Shown here in pieces: positions 8,290 to 59,327 of a stretch of 64,000 nucleotides of DNA. Position numbers and translations under genes: made by a program. Below the pieces are notes generated by a model. It saw only the letters and a list, made by a program, of their open reading frames with translations, was not told the DNA's origin and ran no database searches. The stretch spans positions 10,974,001 through 11,038,000 of the forward strand of contig OZ024740.1 in assembly GCA_964016885.1 (NCBI GenBank). Reading direction: 5' to 3'. The stretch is from Eledone cirrhosa (Eukaryota). Positions within the stretch are counted from its first letter, which is position 1. Each line of letters starts with the position of its first letter.

Positions 8290-8556
8290 TAAACATCTAG
8301 CATTTAAACAAACCATATCCAGCCAAAATTTTCTCACCACTTTCTGTTCCAGCTGGCCATAACTAGCCACTCATATTGATGTTAAGGTATTGTTCTCAAA
8401 ATAAATAATATCAAAATCTTGTAGCTTTGATATTATGTGAGATATTTATGTAAGGTAAAGACTTGACCACGAAAATACAATAGTATATATAGAGTAATGT
8501 AAATATTATGTGTGGTAAAGACTTGACAACGAAAGTACAATAGTAAATATAGAGTG
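8290..8556 (-). repeat. MITE-like interspersed repeat containing diverged 72-bp-type units; 3' flank/target of LINE copy 1
   Basis: Reverse complement reads actctatatttactattg...cacataatatc...agattttgatattatttattttgagaacaatacc...aaatgcta; homologous to 58862-59327 and 28908-29060. Confidence 0.75.
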
Positions 8557-8791
8557 GTTTCTTTATTTGCCACTAGGGCACAAAAGGTAGGGACAGATAC
8601 AAGGGGGGAAGTTTACATATAATTAACGAGTACAAAAATATAACAATGAAATAACAACAACCAACGAAGTCCTCAATAGGGAGGGGCATTAACATGGGTC
8701 GCACACACCCCGGAAAAAATGTGCAACCCTTCTCCTCAGGACCACAAAGAGTAGGTGCTTCCCTCGTCTCCTCTTTTTCCTCTTCTTTCAC

Positions 8792-11700
8792 CTACAGGCT
8801 GATATAGAGAGAAGACCCATTCACTCTGGCCATTCTCCCTACTTTCACCCACCTTTCATAAAACTTGCTGGGGTAGAGCACCTCTCTCTCCATTCTGATC
8901 CTTCTTTTAAAATGGTATTTGAAAAAGGGGACCAGTTGTTGGCCGGAGAGAAAGGTGTCTGACCTCAGCCCTTTCAGCCTCGTCCACCAAACAACTTCTT
9001 TAGCCATGGCTATCACACAGAGAAAAACCGCCTCTCCTTCGTTTTTGAAAGGGGGAGGCGGTTTGATCGTGACAATGGACTCGGTGGTCAACCGGATTGG
9101 TCCCACCCTCGACAGTAGTCGTTCCACATAGCCCCACAGGTCAGCAATGCCTGGGCAGTATACGAATGCGTGCGCAATGATTTCGTCGTCATGCACGCAT
9201 CTCGGACAGATCTTATTCAAAGGATCCCTACCCAGGCTCCCATGCCTGTGGAGCTTGTCTCGAACGGGTAGAGCCCCTCGGTAGCACTGCCAAGCCAGGG
9301 ACTTTTGGAAGTTGTCCATCGGTCCAGGGCCAAACGTCCTACCGAACAGACTGGCCAGTTCATCTTCCTCCATGCCTAGAGCTTCTCCGAGAGCATCGTC
9401 GCACCTGATGCGTACCAACCCTCTATAGAATGTCGAGGTGGAGTCTCCACTGATTGCCGGGTCTGCTTTCCAGAGGGCCGTGAGCGCCTGGGCACATTCA
9501 ATGTGTCAGTCGCCCACTTTTCTCGGTCTTTGCTTGACCCAGGATTGCAGCTCGGTGAGCGAGATGAGTCTGGGAAAGGCTCGCCTCACAAACGGGGCCC
9601 ACACCGGTTGACCGGTGAGGAATACCTGGAGGTGCCGTAGCCTTAATGTGTGTTTACGCATCTGTAGCCACGGCATCCCCAGCCCTCCTTTCGAAGGGTG
9701 TTGACAGCAGATGGATCTCCTCACCAAAGGGGTCCGCTTGTTCCAAAGAAATTGGAACAGCGCGCACTCCATTTTGGCGAGTCTTTTCACTGGGCAAGGC
9801 ACGACGGTCAAGCGGTAGTAGATGACGGATGCTATATAAGTATTCGCCACCTCCGCTCCACTTTTGAGGGATAGTTTGCACTGGGCCCACTTCTCGGTGA
9901 GGGCAAACACCCTGGCCGTTACCTCGTTCCAGTTTTTCTCCACCTGGAGGTCTGGTCCGAACCAGACCCCAAGCAGCTTCACCGAGCCCTCCGTCCAGCG
10001 TCCGACGACATCATTGGAGGGCATCGGTTTGCCTCTCCATGTTCCGAGTTGCAAACCGACGAACTTGTCCCGGTTCAGCTTGGCTCCTGTAAACCTTTCA
10101 TATTCCTCCAGTAAGGTGCCGATCTCACCGATTTGCGAGGTTTTCGACACCATTACTGTCACGTCATCGGCGTAGGCCGACGCCGCTTTCTGCAATCCCG
10201 GTTCCAAAGGGATGCCCTGCAACCGCCCCAACTTCCGCAGTAGTGGCTCAAGAGCCAGCACATACAGAAGGTAGGAGAGAGGGCATCCCTGTCGGATGGA
10301 TCACATGATTTGGAACGGCTCCGAGAGGTGGCCGTTCACCTTGACCCTTGAGCAGACGTTGCTGCTGTGCATCGCAGCAATCCAACCCCTGAAAACGAGT
10401 CCGAAACCTCCCGCCGCGAGCACCGCATCCAGGTAACGATGGTCAACCCTATCGAAAGCTTTAGATTGATCCAAGTTGATCAGGGCCCCACCAAAGTCGG
10501 GTTCATTCCCTACCCTCTCTATGATGTATCGCATAAGGTGGAGATTGTCGTGAATGGACCTGGACGGGATTGCGCATGTCTGCGCTTCTCCCACCAGGTT
10601 TCCGATGACATCGCTACATATAGCTCGTATGGTAGACCATCGAGACCCGGGGATTTGCGTTTGCCGCATTGGCTCAGCGCCGCCCCTATCTCAGCAGCTG
10701 AAATCGTCCTTTCGCAGGACTTCGCCTCCGCGTCCGAGAGGCGCGGCAGACCGTCGAGGTATGGATTGAAATCCATAGTCTCACCCGGCGCGCCGCCCCT
10801 CTCGAACAGTCGTGCAAAGTGCCGCTGGAAGACCGCACACATCTGCCCAGGTTCAAGGATCACACGCCCATCCTGGTCCTTCAAAGACCGAATCGTGGAC
10901 TTGTTCCCACTTTTTGCCTCTGTCACTCGGGCCCAGCTCACAGCTTTGGCTCACTCATTACCCAGAGCACGTATTTTACTCCTGACAACGCAGCCTTCAT
11001 GCTTCACCTCAAAGAACTGGTCTAAGGCCATTCTTGATGCCAGCACGCCGGCTACATTGCCACTCCTAATCGCCTCTTCTACTCTATCTACTAATTCCCT
11101 TTCCGTCTTGTTCCTATCCCTTGCTAATTCCTGACTAAAACCTATCGATTCTATTCTAATTGCTCTCTTAAGAGAGCTCCACCACCTGTTGTTGACAATT
11201 GCCCCTGTCAAACTCTGCTTAACTAACGTGCTAATCCGTTTACTGTAAGCTTTGCTTGTCGGTAAGGACAAGTTCAGCTTCCAGTAACCGGGTCCCTGTC
11301 TATGGGTTCTATCAAGGTTGGCTATGCAGGTCACTAACTTGTGATCCGAATAGTCAACCATGAACATTTTTGGACAGCTAAATGTGTCCCTATCCTTCTC
11401 TCTAACTAGGACCCTATCTAGGTACGACCTAGATGTTCCGCTGCGATTGGTCCACGTCCATAGTGCTACAGTCGGAAAATCTAGTCGATATCTATCGGCC
11501 AGGTCAAATCGGCCGATTAACCTTTTGAGGCGTTTACACCCCCCTCTATTGGCACATGCCCCTACATAGTCCCAACGTGCATCCCGGATACCATTCCAGT
11601 CCCCCACTAAAAGCAAGGAGCGGGACGTTCCCAGAAAAGTTTCCAGACGTTGGAAGTATTCCGGCCGCGCTGCCCAAAAAGGGGCGTACACAGCAATTAG

Positions 11701-12021
11701 TCTAAGGGCTCCACTTTCACTACTGCCGATGTCTAAAACCACCAGTCGACCCTCCGGGTCCAGGTGCACCTTCTGTATGGCGAGGCCCAGGTGTTTTCGC
11801 AGCAGAACGACAACTCCACCCCCACCCCCCGGTTGACAGAGAGATGCGAAGATCTCAAAGTCGTCGAAGAGGGGCGCCAGTTGGTGCTCGCTGCTGATCC
11901 TGGACTCGCAAATAGCCATTACATCCATTCTATGCGACCTGAGATCGTTTGAAAGTTTGCCTTGTTTCCAAGACAGTCCCAGGCCGCGTACATTCAGACA
12001 CCCAACTCTTATATCAGCCAT
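8792..12021 (-). pseudogene. LINE ORF2 (APE + RT + zf-RVT), disrupted
   Basis: Relative to copy 2: frameshift/stop near 10951, ~0.2-kb deletion near 10610, frameshift near 10300, in-frame TGA at 9506-9508. Confidence 0.9.
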
Positions 12022-12042
12022 GTTGGTTAAAAGAGGAAGGGC

Positions 12043-13783
12043 CTACCTGTTCGGCTCCTGAGGAGCAGGTTGCACAATATCCATGGGCGTATTGGAGGGG
12101 TTGTTTGGTGGAGTGTTGTTCTGTGGTGGAGTGGGGGTGTTTGGTGAGGTGTGGGTGGGGAAACGTTTCAAGAGGACGCGGTTATAGGGTCGAGTACATG
12201 TTTTCCCCACGTCCCCAGGAAAGTTCTCTCTTAGTTTTGCATAGGTGTCCATTGGGAGTCTTATCATTTTTAAATGCGGTTTGTTGGCCGCGCTTGCAAA
12301 GAATTGCCCTTCAGTTTCCACCGAAGGGTCTTTGTGTATTGTTTTTACTAGTTCTTTGTTATTTGTGTTAATGTATGTATACTGTTTTATTTGTGTTGTG
12401 TTTGTTTGTTGTTCTTGTGTGTGCTTACGTTTTGTTGTATGTGTTATGTTTTGGGGTGGGGCGAATTTTGTTTGTTCTGTTTCTTTTGTTTTTGTTGGTG
12501 GTTGTGTGTTTGTTTCGTTTATGTTCGAGTGGTGCTTTCTTTTTTTCCTTTTTACAGGTTGGAAGGGTCCCCCCTCTTCGTCACTAGGTGCCGTTTCAGC
12601 TGGGTTCTCGTCCGGGCTGTCGGGTAGTGGTGTATTTTGGGGTTTTGTTGTGTTTGTGTGTGTTTTGGGAGTTGTTTTGGATGGGGCCGTGTCTTGTGTT
12701 ATTTTTCCGTGTTGTTTTTGTTGTTGTTGTTGTGGTGGTGGTGGAGGTAGTGGTGGTGGTGGTGGCGGCGGTGGTGGTGTGTGGGGTGTAGGCAAAAGAG
12801 CCTTTTTTTGTCAATTGAGGACAGGCAGCCCTTAGATGACCCCTGCTTGAACAGTAGTAACATATGGGCCTCCTACCCTCGGCTGAAATGTATATAAATG
12901 TTTCTCCATCGAGGGACACCCTCTGTGGTATTCTAGCTATTCGTTCTGGTCTCATTTGGACCAGAACCTCCACGCTCAAATCGCCGAAAACGTCTGTGGT
13001 GACTTCTCCTACTGAGAGGATTCCGTCCTCGTCTTCTAAAAATCCTGTTAGTACCCAGGAAATGCATGCATTTGGCCGGATTCCGGAGACCCTTATTTTC
13101 TGCGTTCTTTTCCCTAAATATGTAGGGGAAAATGTGTGTCGCTTGGAAACAATTGGCGCCACAGAGTATTTCCTGGCCGTCAATTGATCCTTCATTAGTA
13201 CCGTTATATTCCCATAGAGTGGCTCTTTTTCTATGAACGATATATCACTCCACACATTTTTTAGGACTAGCTCAATTTCTTTTTGGGATAATTGAGCTGG
13301 TTTCCTTGTTATGTTGGAAATTGTTCTGAAAGATATCGTTCTTAGTGTCGTGTCTCTTTTGATTTCTTGTGGGGAGGTGATTGTGAAGTCTCCTCCTTCT
13401 TTGAAAGTTACATACTGTTTTGCTTCCTCCATCTTTTCTCTCAGAGTTGTAATGTCCAGTTGCTTGCAGGTCTGTGTTTTCCGGACCGCCTGTGCAAAGG
13501 AGGCACCAGTAGTGGGTTCGCTTTGTTTGGTGTTATCGTTATTTTTTCCTTGGTTGGTGTTGTGACTATTGCTGTTATTGTCATTGTTGTTTTTGTCTGC
13601 GTTTATGTGACTTTCTGGGTTTTCACCCATTTTTACAAATTTTTCTTTTAATTCCGTGTTCCATGTTTCTTTTGCAGAAGTGAGAAGGGAAGACTTAGAG
13701 CCTTGTGCTTCTAGCTTCTCTGTATCACCTTTCTTAGGGGGCGTGGCTTTCTCGTTAGGATGAGATGTGAAAATTCCATCCAT
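12043..13783 (-). pseudogene. LINE ORF1 (gag-like, zinc knuckle, Pro/Gln/Thr-rich tail), frameshifted
   Basis: Starts MDGIFTSH; CX2CX4HX4C knuckle; an A7 run near 12803-12809 (A9 in copy 2) shifts the frame; the downstream frame ends PQEPNR*. Confidence 0.85.
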
Positions 13784-14077
13784 TTCTATTAGTTTGCCGT
13801 AATAAATTTTTAACTGGAAAATTCGCCCCAAAAAGGGGCGAAAATAAATAAACTCAAAGTTTGACGACCAAGGCAAGGGGTTAACGTATATTACAGTATA
13901 AAAAAATTAATCAAAACTCACTTTTGAGTAAGTAAATCCAACTCGGTAGCCGAGCTTGTTCACACACGTCAACACACGTCTCTCGTATACGAGATGTTAT
14001 GTGAGATATTATGTGAGGTAAAGCCTTTACTGTGAAAATACAATAGTATATATAGAGTAAAACAAACATATGCATGT

Positions 14078-15257
14078 TGTGGTTAGAAAAAGCTTTCTCA
14101 CTTACCACTTTTCATAGGCGCCACTAAATCCCAAGGCTGGTTTCTCCTCTTCCGCGTGCGTCCAACTCATTAACACCCGGGAGCTGCCAAGCTCACGTCT
14201 ACACCGTTCCTGGTCACCACTAAAGAGAGACCGATCTGCTGGCCCTTCCGGTCGAGCACCCTTCCGGCCAAGCACCCTTCCGGTCAAGCACTCTTCCGGT
14301 CGAGCACTCCCCAGCTTCCGACCACCGTACCATACCCACACGCCCCCCCCCCCCTGATCTCAAGGATCAATTTCCCCCTCGTCCTTCTGCATATGAAATT
14401 CTGCTGTCCAGGTTGGTGGTTTGCGACTTCTTTGCGATCTCCGCAGTGTTGGGGCGGCACTTTGGGTTTCCTCTTCCTCGGAGTCCGTTGACACAGTGAT
14501 TCTATGGACATCCAGGACATGACGTGGTACTCCGTCCACGGACACATTGTTCTGGGAATTTACGGCCGTCACCGTTCCATCTAATTCTTGCCAGCTTAGC
14601 AAAAGCGGCTAATGGTCCCTCTGCGAACGCTTCCATCATGCGCCTCTCAATCTTTTGCGCATCCCTTTGGCTGTGTTCATCTAACTCAAGGAAGAGTACC
14701 AACGCGTCCCCCTTGAGGTACAGTGCCATGAGGCCAGCCACATCTTCTATCTTCTGTAAGCTTGCGACCAGCCGGACTTTTCGCAGCCAAGCAACAACAT
14801 CGCCTTCACCGGTAAATGCCCTAATTGCTTCGCTCATTCGTAGTCTCGTCGCCATATCTTAATTTGTCTTGCGGTACGTAATAAAAATAAAAAAAACAGA
14901 CTCCTCTCTGTTTTTCCAGTAGCTTTGTTTTCAGGAAAGTTTTTTTTTTTTTTCAATCAGATCTCAGTTTCCAGTGCCGAAATAGCTTGTGGTTAGAAAA
15001 AGCTATCTCACTTACCGCTTTTCATAGGCGCCGCTAAATCCCAAGGCTGGTTTCTCCTCTTCCACGTGCGTCCAACTCATTAACACCTGGGAGCTGCCAA
15101 GCTCGCGTCCATACCGTTCCTGGTCACCACTAAAGAGAGACCGATTTGCTGGCCCTTCCGGTCGAGCACCCTTCCAGCCAAGCACCCTTCCGGTCAAGCA
15201 CTCTTCCGGTCGAGCACTCCCCAGCTTCCGGCCACCGCACACTGCACCATACCCACA
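14078..15257 (-). mobile_element. Internally deleted (non-autonomous) Ty3/Gypsy-like LTR retrotransposon, 1180 bp, 5-bp TSD ACATG
   Basis: Two direct repeats 14988-15257 and 14078-14340 with TGTGG...CCACA termini. TSD at 15258-15262 and 14073-14077; G-run PPT immediately before the 3' LTR. A gag N-terminus (MATRLRMSEAIRAFTGEGDVVAWL, from 14855) is fused to an integrase-tail remnant (GTVTAVNSQNNVSVDG..RH...LRRSQRSRKPPTW). Confidence 0.92.
14976..14987 (-). promoter_or_regulatory. Primer-binding site AGCTATTTCGGC, complementary to nt 1-12 of tRNA-Phe(GAA)
   Basis: Directly abuts the 5' LTR end (..ACCACA|AGCTATTTCGGC). The plus strand reads GCCGAAATAGCT, the 5' end of metazoan cytosolic tRNA-Phe (GCCGAAAUAGCUCAG...). 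Confidence 0.8.
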
Positions 15258-15393
15258 CATGTATCCATTTTCTTTGATTTTAGTTTCAATAAAGTTTCAA
15301 AGAACTTTATTGAAATGAGTATTGTTGAACTAATATCTAATACCAGGTGAATATATAGTAATATTCTGTTGATATTTTTTTTTTCTTTTTCAG

Positions 15394-15527
15394 GTGATTA
15401 TTTTATGAACTTTAACTGTATTAAACATCTGCCAAATGAATTGCAACTGTCTAATAAAGCATTGGTCTTTCATAAGATCAATTACCTGACACCTACTGGA
15501 GTTCTTGATCAATGCTATAAGATGTAA
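15394..15527 (+). CDS. Terminal coding exon of the plus-strand host gene
   Basis: Strong acceptor (long T tract + cag|GT); phase 1 matches the 7840 donor; (G)DYFMNFNCIKHLPNELQLSNKALVFHKINYLTPTGVLDQCYKM-TAA. Confidence 0.75.
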
Positions 15528-15829: not shown

Positions 15830-15844
15830 TAAGTTTTTTGAAAT

Positions 15845-17076: not shown

Positions 17077-18950
17077 CATCATCATCGTTTAACGTCCATC
17101 TTCCATGGTAGCATGGGTTACATGGGAATTGTCCCACTTTAGGAAAGATTGATTGGGTGACCATGTCTCGCTCGTATAGGACTGCCTGGCATGTTTTCTA
17201 CGGATGGATGCCCTTCCTAACACCAACCACTTTACAGCGTGGACTGGGTGCTTTTTGTCATGACACCTACACGACCTCATTAGTTTGGACTGGGTGTTGT
17301 GGTACCAACATAACTTTACAGAGAAAGGGTGGTGTTGGTGGGAGTGGGAGCGTGGGGTAGGGGTAGTGGGTTGGGGTGTATTTTTGGTTAAGAGGTGCCT
17401 ACTGACTGTAGGTTTCGCTTTGTACGTAGGCAAGGCAGGTCTTCTGTATTACTGCGTGGCGCCAAAGATCTCGGTCCAGTGACATTGTCTTAGAGAGTTG
17501 CAAGTGTCTAAGGTCATAATTTATCAAGTCGTCCCAGGTTTTTCTGGGTCTGCCTACACCGTAGCTTCCATCTATTTTGATCGCCCTGCACTTTTTTATA
17601 CAGCTGTCGTATTTCATGCACATCACGTGACCATACCGACATAGTCTTCTCTCAAGTAAACAGCATCTGATCCCTCTTATTCTTAATTTCTCACTTAGTT
17701 CATTTATATTTTGCCGTTCGTGTATATTACTATTACACATCCAACGGAGCATGTATGCTTCGTTCCGTTCCAGTCTGCGCAGGTCCTCTTCACACAATGC
17801 CCATGTCTCACTGCCATGTAACATTTCTGTTCGTATACAAGTATCATACAATCTGCCTTTCCTTTTTAGAGAGAAACCTTTTGTGGCCAACATCGGTATA
17901 AGCTCTCTGAACTTTTTCCATCCCGTTCTGACTCTGGCTACTGTACTTTCAGAGCGTACTCCACCACTGTTAATTTTATCACCCAGGTAATGGAAAGTGT
18001 CCACTATTTCTATAGAACCATATGGGCAATAAAAAGAGCTAGTATCCTGTGGGCACTTGCTACTTATTGCACTTGAGCATCGGCCACATATAAAATCTAT
18101 GTTCTTAGATAGCTTACCTGTGATCCCACTACATCTTTTATGTACCCATACTTTGCATTTGGGACGTAAAATGGAATTTCTGCCTACTCCTTTCCTACAC
18201 ACTGAGCATGGCCATTTCCCAGAGGGCACCTGTGCCCTATTTTCCTTTCTACATACTAGAACTTTAGTCTTAGACAAGTTAACTTTAAGGCCTTTTGATT
18301 CTAGGCCAGGCTTCCATGTTTGGAATTTCTTCTCTAGTTCAGCCATTGATTCAGCTATAAGAGTTAGATCATCTGCGTATAGAAGTTCCCATGGGCAGCC
18401 GGTCTTGAACTCCTCTGTTATAGCCTGAAGGGCAATAATAAATAGTAGGGGGCTAAGAACGGAGCCCTGATGAACACCAACTTTTACGCTAAACTCTTCA
18501 CTATATTCGTTGTTAATTCTAACCTTGCTGACTGTTTCTTTATACATGGCTTGTATAGCTCTCACACGCCATTCATCTACACCTAGTTTTCTAAGAGCCC
18601 ACCAGATAATGGAGCGGGGACTCTGTCAAAGGCTTTCTCCAAGTCAACAAAAGCTAAGTAGAGGGGTTTACTTTTAGCTAGGTACTTCTCCTGTAGTTGC
18701 TGTACAAGGAAAAGAGCGTCTGTGGTACATTTACCTGGCACAAACTAAACTGCATTTCATCTAGATCAATTTAGTCTCTAATTAGTTGTGCAATAACTCT
18801 TTCTGTGACCTTCATGACCTGGTCAACTAACTTAATGCCTCTATAGGTTCCCCTATCTAGAGCATTTCTTTTGCTCTTGTAGCAGTTAACGATGATGTTG
18901 CGATGCCAGTCACTTGGTATGACCCCATTCTGTATTACTTGGTTTACTAT
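17077..18950 (-). mobile_element. 5'-truncated RTE-clade LINE with (GAT)n tail
   Basis: RT motifs FVDLEKAF, GVHQGSVLSPLLF, LLYADDL, Cys-rich insert, LHGSETW, GRPRKTW; tail appears as catcatcatc at ~17077-17086. Confidence 0.92.
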
Positions 18951-24961: not shown

Positions 24962-25084
24962 GGAACGTGTTTAAAGCTAAGTGAGTACCATTAACAACTA
25001 AAAATGATGATATACTATTCAACAGAATTCGTAATATGGGCGTGTCTCCCCACAGCCCCGGCAGTCAGAATGGAGAAGGCGTTT

Positions 25085-25609
25085 CCAACTCGACCAGCAC
25101 TGCCTTGCCTGTTTTTGTGCGGCCTCCAAACACCACAGTGATGCCTGGCTCCATGCTCTACCCTCCTTCTCCACTGGCACGCAGCTAGACAACAATAGCC
25201 TGTGCATCAGCGTTTCCTTGAGGCTCAACCTCCGGATCTGCGAGCCACACCAATGTCGCTGCTGATCTACCGTGGACACTTTTGGCCTCCACCCATTTTC
25301 ATGTCGCCACAGTGCCAGCCACCTTCCATGACATGCTGCCCACAATGAGGTCATAAAGCATGGCTTGGAAGGTGGCCAGCACTGTGGCGACATGAAAATG
25401 GGTGGAGGCCAAAAGTGTCCACGGTAGATCAGCAGCGACATTGGTGTGGCTCGCAGATCCGGAGGTTGAGCCTCAAGGAAACGCTGATGCACAGGCTATT
25501 GTTGTCTAGCTGCGTGCCAGTGGAGAAGGAGGGTAGAGCATGGAGCCAGGCATCACTGTGGTGTTTGGAGGTCGCACAAAAACAGGCAAGGCAGTGCTGG
25601 TCGAGTTGG
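25085..25609. repeat. 244-bp inverted repeat (25085-25328 / 25366-25609) with 37-nt spacer; fold-back of the CRE-like element's 3' region
   Basis: Arms are reverse complements with about three mismatches by eye; the same peptide appears on both strands in the ORF track. Confidence 0.95.
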
Positions 25610-27520: not shown

Positions 27521-27534
27521 AGCAACTATTATAG

Positions 27535-28907: not shown

Positions 28908-29060
28908 AATCTCACAAAATATGTAATCTATGAGATTTTGATATTATTTATTATGAGAACAATACCTTAACATCAGTATGAGCAGCCAGTTACAGCTGGT
29001 TTGAAGAGAAAGAGGTGAGACAATTCAGGACAGATATTGCTGGTTGAAATGCTAAAAAGC
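28908..29060 (+). repeat. Partial, LINE-free copy of the MITE-like repeat that flanks both LINE 3' ends
   Basis: aatctatgagattttgatattatttattatgagaacaataccttaacatcagtatgag...ggttgaaatgcta aligns with 59193-59322 and the reverse complement of 8298-8425. Confidence 0.75.
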
Positions 29061-29278
29061 TGATAACAAACAACAGTCACTAATAACAACAGAACCCATA
29101 AGGACACAAACATCTCCAGATCTATTCAGACAAAGATTCAGGGAACTAAGACAGCCATAGATTTCATCAGACTGGAATTTGGATTCTAAATGAAGCCATC
29201 AGCAGCATCATCATTTCTATATATTTAAAAAATATATAAAAGAACATAGAATATTAAATCTAAACAAATTTAGGGGGA

Positions 29279-41200: not shown

Positions 41201-43880
41201 GAGAACAACTATATAGAACAACTATCTAGAACAACTATATAGAACAACTATCTAGAACAACTATATAGAACAACTATATAGAACTACTATAGAGAACAAC
41301 TATATAGAACAACTATCTAGAAGAACTATATAGAACAACTATAGAGAACAACTATATAGAACTACTATATAGAACAACTATATAGAACTACTATAGAGAA
41401 CAACTATATAGAACAACTATCTAGAACAACTATATAGAACTACTATATAGAACAAATATCTAGAACAACTATATAGAACAACTATATAGAACTACTATAG
41501 AGAACAACTACATAGAACTACTATAGAGAACAACTATATAGAACAACTATCTAGAACAACTATAGAGAACAACTATAGAGAACAACTATATAGAACAACT
41601 ATATAGAACAACTATATAGAACTACTATAGAGAACTACTATATAGAACAACTATATAGAACAACTATAGAGAACAACTATATAGAACAACTATAGAGAAC
41701 TACTATATAGAACAACTATAGAGAACTACTATATAGAACAACTATATAAAACAACTATATAGAACTACTATAGAGAACTACTATATAGAACTACTATAGA
41801 GAACAACTATATAGAACAACTATATAGAACAACTATATAGAACAACTATATAGAACAACTATAGAGAACTACTATAGAGAACAACTATATAGAACAACTA
41901 TATAGAACAACTATATAGAACAACTATAGAGAACTACTATAGAGAACTACTATATAGAACTACTATAGAGAACTACTATATAGAACAACTATAGAGAACT
42001 ACTATAGAGAACAACTATCTAGAACAACTATATAGAACTACTATAGAGAACTACTATATAGACCAACTATATAGAACAACTATATAGAACTACTATATAG
42101 AACAACTATATAGAACTACTATAGAGAACTACTATATAGAACTACTATATAGAACAACCATCTAGAACAACTATATAGAACTACTATAGAGAACTACTAT
42201 ATAGAACAACTAAATAGAACAACTATATAGAACAACTATATAAAACAACTATATAGAACTACTATATAGAACAACTATATAAAACAACTATATAAAACAA
42301 CTATAGAGAACAACTATATAAAACAACTATATAGAACTACTATAGAGAACTACTATATAGAACTACTATAGAGAACAACTATATAGAACAACTATATAGA
42401 ACTACTATATAGAACTACTATAGAGAACAACTATATAGAACAACTATAGAGAACAACTATATAGAACTACTATAGAGAACTACTATATAGAACTACTATA
42501 GAGAACAACTATATAGAACTATAGAGAACTACTATATAGAACTACTATAGAGAACTACTATAGAGAACAACTATATAGAACTACTATATAGAACTACTAT
42601 AGAGAACAACTATAGAGAACAACTATATGGGACTACTATAAAGAACAACTCTATAGAACTATATAGAACTACTATATAGAACAACTATATAAAACTACTA
42701 TAGAGAACAACTATAGAGAACTACTATATAGAACAACTATATAAAACAACTATATAGAACAACTATATAGAACTACTATATAGTACTATATAGAACAACT
42801 ATATAGAACAACTATATATAAACAACTATATAGAACAACTATAGAGAACTACTATAGAGAACAACTATAGAGAACTACTATAGAGAACAACTATATAGAA
42901 CTACTATAGAGAACAAATATAGAGAACTACTATAAAGAACTACTATATAGAACAACTATATAGAACAACTATATAGAACAACTATATAGAAGTACTATAG
43001 AGAACTACTATAGAGAACAACTATATAGAACTACTATAGAGAACTACTATAGAGAACAACTATATAGAACTACTATAGAACTACTATAGAGAACAACTAT
43101 AGAGAACTACTATATAGAACAACTATATAGAACAACTATAGAGAACTACTATAGAGAACAACTATATAGAACAACTATAGAGAACTACTATATAGAACTA
43201 CTATATAGAACAACTATAGAGAACAACTATATAGAACAACTATAGAGCACTACTATAGAGAACTACTATAGAGAACAACTATATAGAACTACTATATAGA
43301 ACTACTATAGAGAACTACTATATAGAACAACTATAGAGAACAACTACATAGAACAACTATAGAGAACTACTTTAGAGAACAACTATATAGAACAACTATA
43401 GAGAACTACTATAGAGAACAACTATATAGAACAACTATATAGAACAACTATATAGAACAACTATATAAAACTACTATATAGAACAACTATAGAGAACTAC
43501 TATAGAGAACAACTATAGAGAACTACTATATAGAACAACTATATAGAACAACTATAGAGAACTACTATATAGAACTACTATAGAGAACAACTATAGAGAA
43601 CACCTATATAGAACTACTATATATAGAACACCTATATAGAATTACTATATATAGAACTACTATAGAGAACACCTATATAGAACTACTATAGAGAACAACT
43701 ATATATAGAACTACTATAGAGAACAACTATATAGAACTACTATATATAGAACTACTATAGAGAACTACTATAGAGAACAACTATATATAGAACTACTATA
43801 TAGAACTACTATAGAGAACAACTATATATAGAACTACTATAGAGAACAACTATATATAGAACTACTATAGAGAACAACTA
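29279..43880. repeat. 13-bp satellite (GAAC[A/T]ACTATA[T/G]A), ~14.6 kb
   Basis: Continuous visible periodicity with variant monomers. Confidence 0.98.
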
Positions 43881-44859: not shown

Positions 44860-46020
44860 TCATCATCATCACCATTTAAAGTCCATTTTTTCACGCCAGC
44901 ATGGGTTAGACAAGTTTTCCAGATGTAAGCCAAGCCAGATCAGATGTCCGTGTCTTGCTCACACTGCACTGATTGTGGCTCCGTTTCTACGGCTGGATGC
45001 CTTTCCTAATGCCAACCACATTTATAGTGTGCTGGGTACTTTTTGTCATGACATCTTCACGACCACTTTACAGTGTGAGCTGGGTACTTTTTGTCATCAC
45101 ATCTTCACGACCACTGTACAGTGTGAGCTGGGTGCTTTTTGTCATGACATCTTCACGACCACTTTACAGTGTGAGCTGGGTGCTTTTTGTCATGACATCT
45201 TCACGACCACTTTACAGTGTGAGCTGGGTGCTTTTTGTCATGACATCTTCACGACCACTTTACAGTGTGAGCTGGGTCCTTTTGGTCATGACATCTTCAC
45301 GACCACTTTACAGTGTGAGCTGGGTACTTTTTGTCATGACATCTTCACGACCACTTTACAGTGTGAGCTGGGTACTTTTTGTCATGACATCTTCACGACC
45401 ACTTTACAGTGTGAGCTGGGTACTTTTTGTCATGACATCTTCACGACCACTTTACAGTGTGAGCTGGGTGCTTTTTGTCATGACATCTTCACGACCACTT
45501 TACAGTGTGAGCTGGGTACTTTTTGTCATGACATCTTCACGACCACTTTACAGTGTGAGCTGGGTGCTTTTTGTCATGGCATCTTCACGACCACTTTACA
45601 GTGTGAGCTGGGTGCTTTTTGTCATGACATCTTCACGACCACTTTACAGTGTGAGCTGGGTGCTTTTTGTCATGACATCTTCACGACCACTTTACAGTGT
45701 GGATTGGGTACATTTTATCATGACAACTATACAACCACTTTACAGTGTGGACTGGGTGCTTTTTGCATGACACCAACACAAACACTTTACAGTGTGTACA
45801 AGGTGCTTTTTATCATGACACCTACACAACCACTTTACAATGTGGATTGAGTGATTTTTATCTTGACACCTACATGACCACTTTACAGTGAGGACTGGGT
45901 GCTTTTTCTTGTGACTCCTACACAACCACTTTACAGTATGGACTGGGTATTTTTTGTTGTAACACCTGCACAACCACTTTACAGTGTGGACTGGGTGTTT
46001 TTTTTTGTAACACCTACATG
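44860..46020 (-). repeat. RTE 3' end whose 3'UTR has expanded into a 48-bp tandem array (~45020-46020)
   Basis: catcatcatc tail plus ggctggatgcctttcctaatgccaacc as at 17077-17225, then repeats of accactttacagtgtgagctgggt...catgacatcttcacg. Confidence 0.9.
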
Positions 46021-49669: not shown

Positions 49670-51210
49670 GATCACTTTACAGTGTGGACTGGGAACTTGT
49701 CGTGAGAACTACATGACCACTTTACAGTGTGGACTGGGTGCTTTTTGTTGTGACACCTACATGACCACTTTACAGTGTGGACTGGGTACTTTTTGTAGTG
49801 ACACCTACATGACCACTTTACAGTGTGGGCTGGGTACTTTTTGTAGTGACACCGACATGACCACTTTACAGTGTGGACTGGGTGCTTTTTGTTGTGACGC
49901 CTACATGACCACTTTACAGTGTGGACTGGGTGTTTTTTTGTTGTGACACCTACATGACCACTTTACAGTGTGGACTGGGTGCTTTTTGTTGTGACACCGA
50001 CATGACCACTTTACAGTGTGGACTGGGTGCTTTTTGTTGTAACGCCTACATGACCACTTTACAGTGTGGACTGGGTGCTTTTTGTTGTGACACCTACATG
50101 ATCACTTTACAGTGTGGACTGAGTGCTTTTTGTTGTGACATCTACATGACCACTTTACAGTGTGGACTGGGTGCTTTTTGTTGTGACACCTACATGACCA
50201 CTTTACAGTGTGGACTGGGTGCTTTTTGTTGTGACACCTACATGACCACTTTACAGTGTGGACTGGGTGCTTTTTGTTGTGACACCTACATGACCACTTT
50301 ACAGTGTGGACTGGGTGCTTTTTGTAGTGACACCTACATGACCACTTTACAGTGTGGACTGGGTGCTTTTTGTTGTGACACCTACATGACCACTTTACAG
50401 TGTGGACTGGGTGCTTTTTGTTGTGACACCTACATGACCACTTTACAGTGTGGACTGGGTGCTTTTTGTAGTGACACCTACATGACCACTTTACAGTGTG
50501 GACTGGGTGCTTTTTGTAGTGACACCAACATGATCACTTTACAGTGTGGACTGAGTGCTTTTTGTTGTGAACCGACATGACCACTTTACAGTGTGGACTG
50601 GGTGCTTTTTGTTGTGACACCGACATGACCACTTTACAGTGTGGACTGGGTGCTTTTTGTTGTGACACCTACATGACCACTTTACAGTGTGGACTGGGTG
50701 CTTTTTGTTGTGACACCTACATGACCACTTTACAGTGTGGACTGGGTGCTTTTTGTAGTGACACCTACATGACCACTTTACAGTGTGGACTGGGTGCTTT
50801 TTGTTGTGACACCTACATGACCACTTTACAGTGTGGACTGGGTGCATTTTGTTGTGACACCTACATGACCACTTTACAGTGTGGACTGGGTGCTTTTTGT
50901 TGTGACACCTACATGACCACTTTACAGTGTGGACTGGGTGCTTTTTGTTGTGACACCTACATGACCACTTTACAGTGTGGACTGGGTGCTTTTTGTAGTG
51001 ACACCTACATGACCACTTTACAGTGTGGACTGGGTGCTTTTTGTAGTGACACCTACATGACCACTTTACAGTGTGGACTGGGTGCTTTTTGTTGTGACAC
51101 CTACATGACCACTTTACAGTGTGGACTGGGTGCTTTTTGTAGTGACACCTACATGACCACTTTACAGTGTGGACTGGGTACTTTTTGTTGTGACACCTAC
51201 ATGACCACTT
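49670..51210. repeat. 48-bp tandem array (ACCACTTTACAGTGTGGACTGGGTGCTTTTTGTTGTGACACCTACATG), ~32 units, RTE 3'UTR-derived
   Basis: Visible periodicity; the monomer matches the single-copy motif at 17226-17273. Confidence 0.95.
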
Positions 51211-51581: not shown

Positions 51582-51670
51582 CTGGATTGAAAAAGAAGGT
51601 GACAATAGAATATTTGTGATAACATATTTAGTGGCCCAGCTGGAAGTTTAGAGGCTCTGCTTTAGTAGTG

Positions 51671-52216
51671 GTCAGTCTGTTGCATGTCCAACCTTTACTA
51701 GTAGCCTGAGTACTGGTCAGTCTGTTACATGTCCAACCTTTACTAGTACCCTGAGTACTGGTCAGTCTGTTGCATGTCCAACCCTTACTAGTAGCCTGAG
51801 TACTGGTCAGTCTGTTGCATGTCCAACCCTTACTAGTAGCCTGAGTACTGGTCAGTCTGTTGCATGTCCAACCTTTACTAGTAGCCTCAGTACTGGTCAG
51901 TCTGTTACATGTCCAACCTTTACTAGTAGCCTGAGTACTGGTCAGTCTGTTGCATGTCCAACCCTTACTAGTAGCCTGAGTACTGGTCAGTCTGTTGCAT
52001 GTCCAACCCTTACTAATAGCCTGAGTACTGGTCAGTCTGTTGCATGTCCAACCTTTACTAGTAGCCTGAGTACTGGTCAGTCTGTTGCATGTCCAACCCT
52101 TACTAGTAGCCTGAGTACTGGTCAGTCTGTTACATGTCCAACCCTTAGAAGTAGCCTGAGTACTGGTCAGTCTGTTACATGTCCAACCCTTAGAAGTAGC
52201 CTGAGTACTGGTCAGT
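51671..52216. repeat. 45-bp tandem repeat (GTCAGTCTGTTGCATGTCCAACCYTTACTAGTAGCCTGAGTACTG), ~12 units
   Basis: Visible periodicity. Confidence 0.95.
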
Positions 52217-52219
52217 TAT

Positions 52220-52458
52220 GACACATAATATTTTACATAACATTTACATTACTCTATATATACTATTATATTTTAACAGTAAAGACTTTATCTCACATAA
52301 TATCTCACATAACATTTACATTACTCTATATATACTATTGTATTGTCACAGTAAAGGCTTTACCTCACATAATATCTCACATAACATTTACATTACTCTA
52401 TATATACTATTGTATTGTCACAGTAAAGGCTTTACCTCACATAATATCTCACATAACA
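52220..52458 (+). repeat. 72-bp tandem units (actctatatatactattg...cacataacatttacatt); 5' side of the LINE copy 2 target
   Basis: Unit starts at 52251, 52323, 52395; the same units resume at 58862. Confidence 0.9.
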
Positions 52459-52611
52459 TCTCGTATACGAGAGACGTGTGTTGACGTGTGTGAACAAGCT
52501 CGGCTACCGAGTCGGATTTACTTACTCAAAAGTGAGTTTTGATTAATTTTTTTATACTGTAATATACGTTAACCCCTTGCCTTGGTCGTCAAACTTTGAG
52601 TATATTTAAAC
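52459..52611 (+). mobile_element. Extra copy of the LINE 5' end (~150 bp)
   Basis: Duplicates the LINE 5' end starting at 53235, from TCTCGTATACGAGA to aaactttgagt. Confidence 0.88.
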
Positions 52612-52620
52612 TTTGAGTAT

Positions 52621-53150
52621 AATTAGATGGAACGGTGACGGCCGTAAATTCCCAGAACAATGTGTCCGTGGACGGAGTACCACGTCATGTCCTGGATGTC
52701 CGTAGAATCACCGTGTCAACGGACTCCGAGGAAGAGGAAACCCAAAGTGCCGCCCCAACACTGCGGAGATCGCAAAGAAGTCGCAAACCACCAACCTGGA
52801 CAGCAGAATTTCATATGCAGAAGGACGAGGGGGAAATTGATCCCTGAGATCAGGGGGGGGGGGGGGGGGGCGTGTGGTTATGGTACGGTGGCCGGAAGCT
52901 GGGGAGTGCTCGACCGGAAGAGTGCTTGACCGGAAGGGTGCTTGGCCGGAAGGGTGCTTGGCCGGAAGGGTGCTCGACCGGAAGGGCCAGCAGATCGGTC
53001 TCTCTTTAGTGGTGACCAGGAACGGTGTAGACGCGAGCTTGGCAGCTCCCGGGTGTTAATGAGTTGGACGCACGCGGAAGAGAAGAAACCAGCCTTGGGA
53101 TTTAGTGGCGCCTATGAAAAGTGGTAAGTGAGAAAGCTTTTTCTAACCAC
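52621..53150 (+). mobile_element. 3' part of the same LTR element (integrase tail, PPT, 3' LTR 52873-53150)
   Basis: Matches the reverse complement of 14078-14586, including the following ACATG; the LTR has one extra 16-bp internal unit. Confidence 0.92.
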
Positions 53151-53445
53151 AACATGCATATGTTTGTTTTACTCTATATATACTATTGTATTTTCACAGT
53201 AAAGGCTTTACCTCACATAATATCTCACATAACATCTCGTATACGAGAGACGTGTGTTGACGTGTGTGAACAAGCTCGGCTACCGAGTTGGATTTACTTA
53301 CTCAAAAGTGAGTTTTGATTAATTTTTTTATACTGTAATATACGTTAACCCCTTGCCTTGGTCGTCAAACTTTGAGTTTATTTATTTTCGCCCCTTTTTG
53401 GGGCGAATTTTCCAGTTAAAAATTTATTACGGCAAACTAATAGAA

Positions 53446-55184
53446 ATGGACGGAATTTTCACATCTCATCCTAACGAGAAAGCCACGCCCCCTAAGAAAG
53501 GTGATACAGAGAAGCTAGAAGCACAAGGCTCTAAGTCTTCCCTCCTCACTTCTGAAAAAGAAACATGGAACACGGAATTAAAAGAAAAATTTGTAAAAAT
53601 AGGTGAAAACCCAGAAAGTCACATAAACGCAGACAAAAACAACAATGACAATAACAGCAATAGTCACAACACCAACCAAGGAAAAAATAACGATAACACC
53701 AAACAAAGCGAACCCACTACTGGTGCCTCCTTTGCACAGGCGGTCCGGAAAACACAGACCTGCAAGCAACTGGACATTACAACTCTGAGAGAAAAGATGA
53801 AGGAAGCAAAACAGTATGTAACTTTCAAAGAAGGAGGTGACTTCACAATCACCTCCCCACAAGAAATCAAAAGAGACAAGACACTAAGAACGATATCGTT
53901 CAGAACAATTTCCAACATAACAAGGAAACCAGCTCAATTATCCCAAAAAGAAATTGAGCTAGTCCTAAAAAATGTGTGGAGTGATATATCGTTCATACAA
54001 AAAGGACCACTCTATGGGAATATAACGGTGCTAATGAAGGATCAATTGACGGCCAGGAAATACTCTGTGGCGCCAATTGTTTCCAAGCTACACACATTTT
54101 TCCCCACATATTTAGGGAAAAGAACGCAGAAAATAAGGGTCTCCGGAATCCGGCCAAATGCATGCATTTCCTGGGTTCTAACAGGATTTTTAGAAGACAA
54201 GGACGGAATCCTCTCAGTAGGAGAAGTCACAACAGACGTTTTCGGCAGTTTGTGCGTGGAGGTTCTGGTCCAAATGAGACCAGAACGAATAGCTAGAATA
54301 CCACAGAGGGTGTCCCTCGATGGAGAAACATTTATATACATTTCAGCCGAGGGTAGGAGGCCCATATGTTACTACTGTTCAAGCAGGGGTCATCTAAGGG
54401 CTGCCTGTCCTCAATTGACAAAAAAAAAGGCTCTTTTGCCTACACCCCACACAACACCACTGCCACCACCACCACCTCCACCACCACCACCACCACAACA
54501 ACAACAACAAAAACAACATGGAAAAATAACACAAGACACGGCCCCACCCAAAACAACTCCAAAAACACACACAAACACAACAAAACCCAAAATACACCAC
54601 TACCCGACAGCACAGACGAGGACCCAGCTGAAACGGCACCTAGTGACGAAGAGGGGGGACCCTTCCAACCTGTAAAAAGGAAAAAAAGAAAGCACCACTC
54701 GAACATAAACGAAACAAACACACAACCACCAACAAAAACAAAACAAACAGAACAAACAAAATCCGCCCCACCCCAAAACATAACACATACAACAAAACGT
54801 AAGCACACACAAGAACAACAAACAAACACAACACAAATAAAACAGTATACATACATTAACACAAATAACAAAGAACTAGTAAAAACAATACACAAAGACC
54901 CTTCGGTGGAAACTGAAGGGCAATTCTTTGCAAGCGCGGCCAACAAACCGCATTTAAAAATGATAAGACTCCCAATGGACACCTATGCAAAACTAAGAGA
55001 GAACTTTCCTGAGGACGTGGGGAAAACATGTACTCGACCCTATAACCACGTCCTCTTGAAACGTTTCCCCACCCACACCTCACCAAACACCCCCACCCCA
55101 CCACAGAACAACACCCCACCAAACAACCCCTCCAATACGCCCATGGATATTGTGCAACCTGCTCCTCAGGAGCCGAACAGGTAG
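53446..55184 (+). pseudogene. LINE ORF1 with one frameshift (~54588)
   Basis: CCHC knuckle; 1-bp loss (aacccaaaat vs aaccccaaaat in copy 1). Confidence 0.85.
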
Positions 55185-55205
55185 GTCCTTCCTCTTTTAA
55201 CCAAC

Positions 55206-58200
55206 ATGGCTGATATAAGAGTTGGGTGTCTGAATGTACGCGGCCTGGGACTGTCTTGGAAACAAGGCAAACTTTTAAACGATCTCAGGTCGCATAGAAT
55301 GGATGTAATGGCTATTTGCGAGTCCAGGATCAGCAGCGAGCACCAACTGGCGCCCCTCTTCGACGACTTTGAGATCTTCGCATCTCTCTGTCAACCGGGG
55401 GGTGGGGGTGGAGTTGTTGTTCTGCTGCGAAAACACCTGGGCCTCGCCATACAGAAGGTGCACCTGGACCCGGAGGGTCGACTGGTGGTTTTAGACGTCG
55501 GCAGTAGTGAAAGTGGAGCCCTTAGACTAATAGCTGTGTACGCCCCTTTTTGGGCAGCGCGGCCGGAATACTTCCAACGTCTGGAAACTTTTCTGGGAAC
55601 GTCCCGCTCCTTGCTTTTAGTGAGGGACTGGAATGGTATCCTGGATGCACGTTGGGACTATGTAGGGGCATGTGCCAATAGAGGGGGGTGTAAAAGCCTC
55701 AAAAGGTTAATCGGCCGATTTGACCTGGCCGATAGATATCAACTAAATTTTCCGACTGTACCACTATGGACGTGGACCAATCGCAGCGGAACATCTAGGT
55801 CGTACCTAGATAGGGTCCTAGTTAGAGAGATGGATAGGGACACATTTAGCTGTCCAAAAATGTTCATGGTTGACTATTCGGATCACAAGTTAGTGACCTT
55901 CATAGAACCCATAGACAGGGACCCGGTTACTGGAAGCTGAACTTGTCCTTACCGACAAGCAAAGCTTACAGTAAACGGATTAACACGTTAGTTAAGCAGA
56001 GTTTGACAGGGGCAATTGTCAACAACAGGTGGTGGAGCTCTCTTAAGAGAGCAATTAGAATAGAATCGATAGGTTTTAGTCAGGAATTAGCAAGGGATAG
56101 GAACAAGACGGAAAGGGAATTAGTAGATAGAGTAGAAGAGGCGATTAGGAGTGGCAATGTAGCCGGCGTGCTGGCATCAAGAATGGTCTTAGACCAGTTC
56201 TTTGAGGTGAAGCATGAAGGCTGCGTTGTCAGGAGTAAAATACGTGCTCTGGGTAATGAGGGAGCCAAAGCTGTTAGCTGGGCCCGAGTGACAGAGGCAA
56301 AAAGTGGGAACAAGTCCACAATTCGGTCTTTGAAGGACCAGGATGGGCGTGTGATCCTTGAGCCTGGGCAGATGTGTGCAGCCTTTCAGCGGCACTTTGC
56401 ACAACTGTTCGAGAGGGGCGGCGCGCCGGGTGAGACTATGGATTTCAATCCATACCTCGACGGTCTGCCGCGCCTCTCGGACGCGAAGTCCTGCGAAAGG
56501 CCGATTTCAGCTGCTGAGATAGGGGCGGCGCTGAGCCAATGCGGCAAACGCAAATCCCCGGGTCTCGATGGTCTACCATACGAGCTATATGTAGCGATGC
56601 CGGACTTGTTCTCCGATATCCTCGAAGCGGTCTACTGCAACTGGCAGCAGAACGGGAGAATTCCCAGTTCTGTGACCAAGGGCGTAGTTATGCTGGTGAG
56701 GAAGGATGAGAACAAGGGGGATGACATAAGTAACTTCAGGCCTATAACTCTGCTAAATACAGAGTTAAAGATTTTGGCCAAGGTGTTAGCGAAGAGGTTG
56801 GCGCTTGTCGTCGGAAACCTGGTGGGAGAAGCGCAGACATGCACAATCCCGTCCAGGACCATTCACGACAATCTCCACCTTATGCGATACATCATAGAGA
56901 GGGTAGGGAATGAACGCGGCTTTGGTGGGGCCCTGATCAACTTGGATCAATCTAAAGCTTTCGATAGGGTTGACCATTGTTACCTGGATGCGGTGCTTGC
57001 GGCGGCAGGCTTCGGACCCGTTTTCAGGGGTTGGATTGCTGCGATGCACAGCAGCAACGTCTGCTCAAGGGTCAAGGTGAACGGCCACCTCTCGGAGCCG
57101 TTCCAAATCATGCGATCCATCCGACAGGGATGCCCCCTCTCCTCCCTTCTGTATGTGCTGGCTCTTGAGCCACTACTGCGGAAGTTGGGGCGGTTGCAGG
57201 GCATCCCTTTGGAACCGGGATTGCAGAAAGCGGCGTCGGCCTACGCCGATGACGTGACAGTAATGGTGTCGAAAACCTCGCAAATCGGTGAGATCGGCAC
57301 CTTACTGGAGGAATATGAAAGGTTTACAGGAGCCAAGCTGAACCGGGACAAGTCCGTCGGTTTGCAACTCGGAACATGGAGAGGCAAACCGATGCCCTCC
57401 AATGACGTCGTCGGACGCTGGACGGAGGGCCCGGTGAAGCTGCTTGGGGTCTGGTTCGGACCAGACCTCCAGGTGGAGAAAAACTGGAACGAGGTAACGG
57501 CTAGGCTGTTTGCACTCACCCAGAAGTGGGCCCAGTGCAAACTATCCCTGAAAGGTCGAGCGGAGGTGGCAAATACTTATATAGCATCCATCATCTACTA
57601 CCGCTTGACCGTCGTGCCTTGCCCAGTGAAAAGACTCGCCAAAATGGAGTCCGCGCTGTTCCAATTTCTTTGGAACAAGCGGACCCCTTTGGTGAGGAGA
57701 TCCATCTGCTGTCAACACCCTTCGAAAGGAGGGCTGGGGATGCCGTGGCTACAGATGCATAAACACGCATTAAGGCTACGGCACCTCCAGGTATTCCTCA
57801 CCGGTCAACCGGTGTGGGCCCCGTTTGTGAGGCGAGCCTTTCCCAGACTCGTCTCGCTCACCGAGCTGCAATCCTGGGTCAAGCAAAGACCGAGAAAAGT
57901 AGGCGACTGGCACATTGAATGTGCCCAGGCGCTCACGGCCCTCTGGAAAGCGGACCCGGCAATCAGTGGAGACTCCACCTCGACATTCTATAGAGGGTTG
58001 GTACGCAGCAGGTGCGACGTTGCTCTCGGAGAAGCTCTAGGCATGGAGGAAGATGAACTGGTCAGTCTGTTCGGTAGGACGTTTGGCCCTGGACCGATGG
58101 ACAACTTCCAAAAGTCCCTGGCTTGGCAGTGCTACCGAGGGGCTCTACCCGTTCGAGACAAGCTCCACAGGCATGGGAGCCTGGGTAGGGATCCTTTGAA

Positions 58201-58624
58201 TAAGATCTGTCCGAGATGCGTGCATGACGACGAAACCGTTGCGCACGCATTCGTACACTGCCCAGGCATTGCTGACCTGTGGGGCTATGTGGAACGACTA
58301 CTGTCGAGGGTGGCACCAATCCGGTTGACCACCGAGTCCATTGTCACGATCAAACCGCCTCCCCCTTTCAAAAACGAAGGAGAGGCGGTTTTTCTCTGTG
58401 TGATAGCCATGGCTAAAGAAGTTGTATGGTGGACGAGGCTGAAAGGGCTGAGGTCAGACACCTTTCTCTCCGGCCAACAACTGGTCCCCTTTTTCAAATA
58501 CCATTTTAAAAGAAGGATCAGAATGGAGAGAGAGGTGCTCTACCCCAGCAAGTTTTATGAAAGGTGGGTGAAAGTAGGGAGAATGGCCAGAGTGAATGGG
58601 TCTTCTCTCTATATCAGCCTGTAG
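55206..58624 (+). pseudogene. LINE ORF2 (APE + RT + zf-RVT) with one frameshifting deletion (~55900); the 893-aa RT portion is open
   Basis: ORFs 55206-55940 and 55943-58624; KSPGLDG, FRPITLLN, LDQSKAFDRV, RQGCPLS, AYADD; ~13-bp deletion relative to copy 1. Confidence 0.92.
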
Positions 58625-58861
58625 GTGAAAGAAGAGGAAAAAGAGGAGACGAGGGAAGCACCTGCTCTTTGTGCTCCTGAGGAGAAGGGTTGCACATTTT
58701 TTCCGGGGTGTGTGCGACCCATGTTAATGCCCCCTCCCTATTGAGGACTTCGTTTGTTGTTGTTATTTCATTGTTATATTTTTGTACTCGTTAATTATAT
58801 GTAAACTTCCCCCCTTGTATCTGTCCCTACCTTTTGTGCCCTGGTGGCAAATAAAGAAATC

Positions 58862-59327
58862 ACTCTATATATACTATTGTATTGTCACAGTAAAGGTTTT
58901 ACCTCACATAACATTTACATTACTCTATATATACTATTATATTTTCACAGTAAAGGCTTTATCTCACATAATATCTCACATAACATTTACATTACTCTAT
59001 ATATACTATTATATTTTCACAGTAAAGGCTTTACCTCACATAATATCTCACATAGCATTTACATTACTCTATATATACTATTATATTTTCACAGTAAAGG
59101 CTTTACCTCACATAATATCTCACATAGCATTTACATTACTCTATATATACTATTGTATTTTCACAGTAAAGGCTTTATCTCACATAATATCGAATCTATG
59201 AGATTTTGATATTATTTATTTTGATAACAATACTTTAAAGTCAGTATGAGTGGATGGTTGCAGCTGATTTGAACAGAAAGAGGTGAGAGAATTCTGACAG
59301 GATACAGCCGGTTGAAATGGTAAAGGT
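58862..59327 (+). repeat. 72-bp tandem units followed by the MITE-like repeat end; 3' flank of LINE copy 2
   Basis: Unit starts at 58862, 58922, 58994, 59066, 59138, then the aatctatgagattttgatattatttatt... family sequence. Confidence 0.88.

Follow-up and report, generated by a model that had tools for sequence, protein, structure and literature searches.

The genome of the octopod Eledone cirrhosa holds a family of about 330 long interspersed nuclear elements (LINEs) that occupy one exact base of a 72-bp unit within an older miniature inverted-repeat transposable element (MITE). Two members, copies A and B, lie in the stretch of 64,000 nucleotides analysed here (assembly GCA_964016885.1, contig OZ024740.1 or C1, C1:10,974,001-11,038,000; hereafter the window), which was examined by self-comparison, motif scanning and direct reading of the sequences. 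Most likely, the family is a young one of L1/Tx1 type whose apurinic/apyrimidinic endonuclease (APE) would nick its MITE site at CATT/ACTCTAT and whose RNA would carry a leader of 25-28 nt of target sequence.

Genome-wide target specificity

A generic pattern for the LINE 3′ end gave 409 exact matches in the genome, 336 of them followed by NN-ACTCTAT, and a family-specific pattern gave 325, while controls with reversed patterns returned 0. Among the first 30 generic matches, 23 belonged to the focal family, all 23 on target, and the remaining 7 to a sister family with TATC-like repeats downstream of it. When the first 95 matches of the family-specific pattern were compared by eye with the exact-target list, 93 were found there, and the other 2 proved to be on-target variants. 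Furthermore, the best DNA matches to the 3′ untranslated region ran on into the start of a unit in 30/30 loci (at locus L020 for about 10 bases only), and the 5′ ends were preceded by ATAACAT in 278 of 284 genome matches. Target preference has been defined as more than 20% of flanks of one type (in the relevant passage of PMC4494074), a share that is exceeded here on the 3′ side (93/95 exact plus the 2 variants) as well as on the 5′ side (278/284). A first-pass annotation of the window had proposed a site-specific LINE within a MITE-like host, and this proposal is upheld by the flanks on both sides genome-wide, the surveyed 3′ junctions lying on target and not in unrelated sequence.

On C1-C3, focal LINE copies sit near contig ends (among the copies listed). 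The first 100 MITE left ends include 79 at C1 31-60 Mb, a region without a listed LINE copy. For the comparisons that follow, 80 loci were fetched, 79 of which were picked from the on-target lists.

Classification and age of the LINE

Open reading frame (ORF) 2 matches the Pfam families PF03372 (APE), PF00078 (reverse transcriptase, RT) and PF13966 (zinc finger, zf), and the conserved APE motifs are present in both translation and alignment. Among solved structures, the nearest to it is human L1 ORF2p (E 3.5e-53), which outranks R2, and its closest named homologue, from Argonauta hians, is 68% identical over the RT region. ORF1, of about 580 aa, carries the motif CX2CX4HX4C and scores 16.8 bits for zf-CCHC against a cut-off of 20.8. 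No named Tx1 reference was among the homologues retrieved for ORF2; its domains place the LINE in the L1/Tx1 group of APE LINEs, with membership of the Tx1 clade itself putative. Both ORFs are intact in 4 of 60 scanned copies (L077, L085, L094 and L100), and the intact copies are 99.5-99.7% identical to L100. Judged by these sequences, the family is young.

The host MITE and its piggyBac relative

The host is short, non-coding and present in high copy number, its left end TTAACCCTTTAGCATTTACATTACTCTAT having 7,918 exact genome copies. Complete single-unit elements measure 197-229 bp and show TTAA and terminal inverted repeats (TIRs) at their ends and unrelated outer flanks. Of the first 30 left ends, 22 belong to single-unit elements and 8 to elements with 2-26 or more units, and 1 holds a LINE. 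Hosts occupied by a LINE are mainly arrays, at least two units standing on the left in 63 of 75 loci. An end TTAACCCTTTAGCATTCACATT is borne by 20 of the 30 best loci for the piggyBac transposase domain PF13843. When the MITE ends were compared with a 2,575-bp piggyBac element, 21/22 terminal bases were identical at one end and 15/16 at the other, the latter agreeing at 73% over 66 bases. The host is a non-autonomous piggyBac derivative, because its ends match those of this transposase-bearing element. In the 2.57-kb piggyBac family itself (L249:972-3547, L245-L253), a 561-aa transposase frame is open in several copies, and the family is possibly still active.

Junction structure and the putative target leader

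The 5′ end was kept at CATAACAT/CTCG in 75 of the 80 fetched copies (one with an extra base, one a variant), the first bases of the LINE at this junction being CTCGTATAC; 15 of these 75 copies have internal deletions. Between the two junction points the 7 nt TTACATT are missing, for which the first-pass annotation had offered either a small target deletion or a near-unit duplication. The deletion accounts for the main part of the data, and unit-length duplication did not prove general. A 65-bp target duplication as a rule was rejected: the units before and after the LINE differ on average by 2.25/38 nt (identical in 9/56), against 2.17/38 nt (9/46) and 1.90/38 nt (11/48) in comparisons of neighbouring units, so that the units flanking the LINE are no closer to each other than neighbours are.

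The last bases before the LINE behave differently from the rest of the host. The final 28 nt 5′ of the LINE are exactly canonical at 63 of 75 loci, compared with 28 of 63 for the same 28 nt in the next unit upstream (Fisher p = 2e-6) and 27 of 65 in the first downstream unit (p = 2e-7), a contrast that is also present in the first 56 loci. At sites where the local array diverges, positions 39-65 of the abutting unit are of donor type in 7/7 cases (control 2/6), whereas positions 1-30 are local in 17/25 (control 14/15) and the downstream unit is local in 20/26. For instance, L084 and L085 carry the long form in the LINE-abutting unit only, their other units being 58-60 bp long, and in L077 the abutting unit switches allele at unit position 41. 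Taken together, the donor-type sequence of the last 25-28 nt before the LINE, even in divergent arrays, likely reflects an RNA-borne leader and a 7-bp deletion. On the 3′ side, the dinucleotide that comes after AAAGAAA varies with a single-nucleotide polymorphism of the LINE (TT with G in 13/13, CC with A in 31/32) and is therefore carried by the element. In addition, three truncated copies have short duplications that start from the 3′ junction, namely ACTCTATAT in L082 (9 bp), ACTCTA in L179 (6 bp) and AC in L111 (2 bp), and L110 has a 5′ inversion.

These features can be combined in a tentative sequence of events. Transcription would begin inside an array, giving an RNA that starts with the end of a unit and finishes with AATAAAGAAA, followed by two bases that belong to the element (CC, TC or TT). 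The APE domain would nick the bottom strand at CATT/ACTCTAT and thereby prime reverse transcription. The top strand, as the three truncated copies suggest, would be broken 2-9 nt downstream, with short duplications resulting where copying stops early. The leader of a full-length cDNA, 25-28 nt or more, would then anneal to the end of the upstream unit, replace it with donor sequence and eliminate TTACATT. Annealing of this kind would explain why the 5′ junction is fixed, why few copies are truncated and why multi-unit hosts are favoured. Later, some copies have been multiplied or rearranged at the DNA level.

The leader and the element's first 35 nt (window 53211-53290, plus strand) are predicted to form one hairpin (z -3.9, 0/200 shuffles, with fold boundaries set after the data had been seen), which spans precisely the 25-nt leader and returns z -2.8 in L100. 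It is absent from the 5′ ends of four relatives (z -0.03, 0.81, -0.55 and -0.24), and a leader-element hairpin was rejected as a general feature. When L100:780-1400 was scanned against Rfam for a known ribozyme at the 5′ end, only two sub-threshold, chance-level matches were returned. By eye, element positions 14-17 read GACG in the MITE family as well as in one TATC family and the ATT family, which might be a DPE-like promoter motif.

Independence of the insertions and alternative explanations

LINE and host divergence were compared in the 40 loci whose tail could be read (A, B and 38 of the 80 fetched), giving 780 pairs, with the last 600 bp of the LINE as its measure. The pairs differ by 2.1% in the LINE and by 16.9% in the host tail, the latter close to the 14.9% found between empty MITEs; 0/780 pairs of tails are less than 5% different, and the Mantel rho between LINE and tail is -0.01. 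Most insertions are therefore independent, and flank and LINE do not show the equal divergence that the first-pass annotation had associated with segmental duplication. The tail divergence and the missing correlation exclude that copies generally arose by composite transposition or segmental duplication. A composite, that is, the MITE with its internal LINE moved by piggyBac transposase, would agree with the 13 of 75 loci at which the LINE is flanked by both host ends (within the fetched stretch) and with the existence of an intact transposase family with matching ends; it is nonetheless refuted for the 40 sampled loci, and we consider it, together with segmental duplicates, very unlikely overall. 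The chance that the 72-bp units belong to the LINE itself, as its 3′ tail or as promoter monomers at its 5′ end, is smaller still and practically negligible. Units do stand on both sides of nearly every copy, but they also lie inside LINE-free TIR elements (29/30), which settles the possibility of a 3′ tail raised by the first-pass annotation; moreover, 33,740 exact unit junctions exist genome-wide against about 330 LINEs, and locus-private unit variants are common to both sides of a LINE. About 25 nt alone behave as element-borne, and the idea is refuted except for the short leader.

The junctions might also be explained with no leader at all, by a specific endonuclease making fixed cuts (the top strand 7 nt upstream) and a canonical flank that reflects the choice of perfect targets. 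This would fit the base-exact 5′ junction (278/284) and the truncated copy L106, joined at the usual base; we judge it improbable, since in L084, L085 and L077 the abutting sequence is not found elsewhere in the local array, the host of L103 is without the abutting sequence, and the duplications in three truncated copies lie downstream of the nick. Slightly less probable again is a spread of the LINE at the DNA level, in which 72-bp arrays underwent gene conversion or unequal exchange with one another, with no targeted reverse transcription. The scarcity of truncations (75/80 with the 5′ end), the clustering of copies near the contig ends of C1-C3 and the DNA-level events that do occur (tandem duplicates, the segment shared by A and B) speak for such exchange. 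Against it, the co-copied flank is short and one-sided, reaching about 28 nt upstream, with a local downstream unit at 20/26 sites; the truncations with short duplications and the 5′ inversion of L110 are marks of reverse transcription; and the relatives of the family are site-specific too.

Several observations count against targeted, leader-assisted insertion as the whole account. The 3′ tally of 80/80 on target in the fetched loci is circular, because of the way in which 79 of them were picked. The count for positions 39-65 is small (7 informative sites in 6 loci), and the top-strand position rests on three truncated copies. Outcomes also vary: the junction of L106 lies at CATAACAT despite its truncation, and L103, whose host has a single unit to each side, shows a ~50-bp duplication. 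Finally, not all copies are independent. A and B have a private 5′ segment in common, and the tandem series at C1:4.23-4.26 Mb contains two identical spacers and three copies that agree at 99.7-99.8%.

At this last location (L238-L241, C1:4.229-4.263 Mb), six LINE copies stand head to tail with spacers of 1-4 units. Read from its sequence, the array was made in part by local duplication.

Copies A and B in the window

The features of the window are collected in Table 1. The motifs cited by the first-pass annotation were found in place, the 3′ ends of A and B continue at the same target base, and the LINE-free host piece is present. The 3′ flanks are indeed more diverged than the LINE bodies, A and B differing by 2.0% in the LINE and by 23% in the host tail. 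All three host pieces in the window are without the left TIR, and the identity of the host was therefore drawn from other loci.

Table 1. LINE copies, host MITE pieces and associated features in the window (window positions).
Feature	Position	Strand	Description
MITE right part 3′ of LINE A	8290..8555	-	two diverged units and ~135-bp tail, degenerate right TIR
LINE copy A	8556..13993	-	ends AATAAAGAAA-CC, then ACTCTATA
Unit 5′ of LINE A	13994..14060	-	one donor-type unit, 65-67 bp
Short long terminal repeat (LTR) element upstream of A	14078..15257	-	two ~270-bp LTRs TGTGG..CCACA, purine tract
Host MITE fragment without LINE	28908..29060	+	tail and degenerate right end
Host array, left part at B	52222..52459	+	array of 3.3 units (72 bp each) without left TIR
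LINE 5′ stub, 149 bp	52460..52608	+	junction CATAACAT/CTCG
Duplicate of A's upstream region	52621..53235	+	LTR-element piece and 65-bp unit, locus-private
LINE copy B	53236..58861	+	ends AATAAAGAAA-TC, then ACTCTATA
MITE right part 3′ of B	58862..59327	+	~4.7 units and tail, degenerate right TIR

Neither copy is intact. In A, ORF1 is frameshifted and ORF2 (APE-RT-zf) has stops and a deletion of about 195 bp; in B, ORF1 from 53446 (with a CCHC knuckle) and ORF2 from 55206 (APE, RT, zf-RVT) are both frameshifted. The three 5′ starts in the window are each preceded by CTCACATAACAT (13994, 52459, 53235), and one diagnostic base distinguishes the stub from both A and B. The unit 5′ of A differs from A's 3′ units, and no TIR precedes it. 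The LTR element beyond it is bounded by a 5-bp duplication, ACATG. Its 3′ part recurs 5′ of B (52621-53151, plus strand), 38 kb away and inverted, with 7 mismatches over about 526 bp, and adjoins the LINE stub through a short microhomology. This piece would have been copied ahead of B by local DNA rearrangement or by a single 5′ transduction. A 5′-transducing subfamily with the LTR piece was rejected, as the A/B 5′ junction (LTR piece plus unit) occurs twice in the 3.0-Gb genome, each time inside the window. That B is a plain copy of A was likewise unsupported: their divergence of 2.0% compares with a mean of 1.5% for other pairs, and they have 3 shared rare alleles only. The window thus contains a local rearrangement, with at most two of its 5′ junctions independent, and the case for targeting therefore rests on the genome. 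Independent insertion, as claimed by the first-pass annotation, holds for most loci genome-wide and fails for the window's three 5′ ends, where A and B share the locus-private segment and the third end is that of the stub.

Relatives and a putative target switch

The sister family, at 80% DNA identity, has TATC-type repeats downstream of it in 20/20 loci, and its mapped 5′ ends are preceded by (TATC)n. Further lineages at 70-85% also terminate in (TATC)n, and a large young family with 68% protein identity resides in (ATT)n. The endonuclease domains of the focal family and its relatives are 60-80% identical, with stretches specific to a family around residues 114-117 and 153-157. At least four related LINE lineages stand head to tail in (TATC)n arrays (L121-L140, L221-L229). 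The (ATT)n family (L191-L220, L230-L237) has many open ORF2 frames, is 97-99% identical and often occurs in tandem.

In a DNA tree (34 rows, midpoint root), whose relatives were found as neighbours within TATC arrays, the MITE family is nested among the TATC lineages. A first protein tree gave no decision on TATC ancestry; a rooted one with 19 rows, 4 of them homologues and 15 drawn from the 46 extracted rows, took the same shape as the DNA tree. The focal site and (TATC)n share TCTAT. On these grounds the focal family likely arose through a switch from (TATC)n targets. As a point against this, the rooted protein tree does not reject a single TATC clade (approximately unbiased test, p-AU 0.46), and proof of (TATC)n as the ancestral target failed on the array-neighbour sampling, the midpoint root and this p-AU. 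A broader model, in which the (TATC)n-to-MITE switch went together with an R2-like dependence on a leader and with adaptation of the first 35 nt to pair with it, would be speculative, and we lean against it. If both switch and leader were true, these lineages, with intact copies of the focal family and of relatives that have other targets, would offer a natural series for the endonuclease residues and RNA features that set target choice.

Other elements in the window

Outside the LINE and its host, 17399-18625 (minus strand) holds a piece of the RT of a different, probably RTE-like LINE that carries a PHD-like finger. The A-rich segment 19950-21154 (plus strand) has a 220-aa ORF with no Pfam or PDB match, conceivably a degenerate endogenous viral capsid gene. 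The degenerate element at 25000-27900 is rich in GC (55-57%), and its short ORFs gave no match in Pfam; one of its motifs resembles a CRE-type RT. Large minisatellite arrays occupy 1-6311 (21-bp units), 29278-43880 (13), 45015-46003 (48), 49673-51210 (48), 51664-52216 (45) and 62867-63999 (66); some apparently grew out of pieces of dispersed repeats.

Comparison with known systems

The principle is already published, both for Tx1 elements that target DNA transposons and for target leaders on RNA. The passages of PMC4494074 that concern this group describe Tx1 in the non-autonomous piggyBac Tx1D, in addition to Tx1-Mar, Tx1-9_AMi, Keno, Kibi and Koshi, and the corresponding parts of PMC1950540 and PMC6719617 report Tx1L as specific for Tx1D. 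For cephalopods, 13 recently active L1-Tx1 families have been reported in Octopus vulgaris, in a paper whose main text is without the word 'target' (PMC13282606), and the relevant passages of PMC10294476 give no target data. No description of the focal family was found in the literature, a search that left supplements, Repbase and Dfam, which may hold the family, outside its scope.

The nearest counterpart is Tx1L of Xenopus laevis, likewise an APE-type LINE with a sequence-specific site in a non-autonomous piggyBac element (relevant passages of PMC4494074, PMC1950540 and PMC6719617). Unlike Tx1L, the focal family has an octopod host and an unrelated target sequence, and its full-length copies show a 7-bp deletion and donor-type target on the 5′ side. 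In contrast to a Tx1C-like mobile composite, the host halves are not copied with the focal LINE (40 loci). The site of Tx1L lies within internal tandem repeats, and its insertions reportedly come with a target duplication of about 23 bp.

Crocodilian Tx1-Mar (in Mariner-N4_AMi) and Tx1-9_AMi (in Harbinger) share with the focal family the preference for a DNA transposon and the tandem insertions, and transcription out of the flanking transposon has been proposed for such crocodilian families (as presented in parts of PMC4494074). These elements are old, at 85-87% to consensus, with two preferred regions (same passages of PMC4494074), whereas the focal family is about 2% diverged, retains intact copies and uses a single base-exact site. 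In their microsatellite targets, the relatives that reside in (TATC)n and (ATT)n resemble Kibi, Koshi and the crocodilian (TTCC)n/(TTTC)n Tx1 elements (as listed in PMC4494074, in part); the focal family, unlike Kibi and Koshi, is off microsatellites and has only TCTAT in common with (TATC)n.

For the putative leader, the closest parallel is R2Bm, whose RNA keeps 27 nt of 28S target at its 5′ end, proposed to serve 5′ joining by strand invasion (in the relevant section of PMC6895275). R2 combines a restriction-like endonuclease, an rDNA target and a ribozyme like that of hepatitis delta virus; the focal family is of APE type and without an Rfam ribozyme match. Set beside these systems, the focal family shows with unusual clarity, and in an invertebrate, a retrotransposon that uses another transposon as a safe landing site. 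A young family with intact copies, accompanied in one genome by (TATC)n and (ATT)n relatives, makes target change in APE LINEs testable, and likewise the way in which such LINEs complete their 5′ junction.

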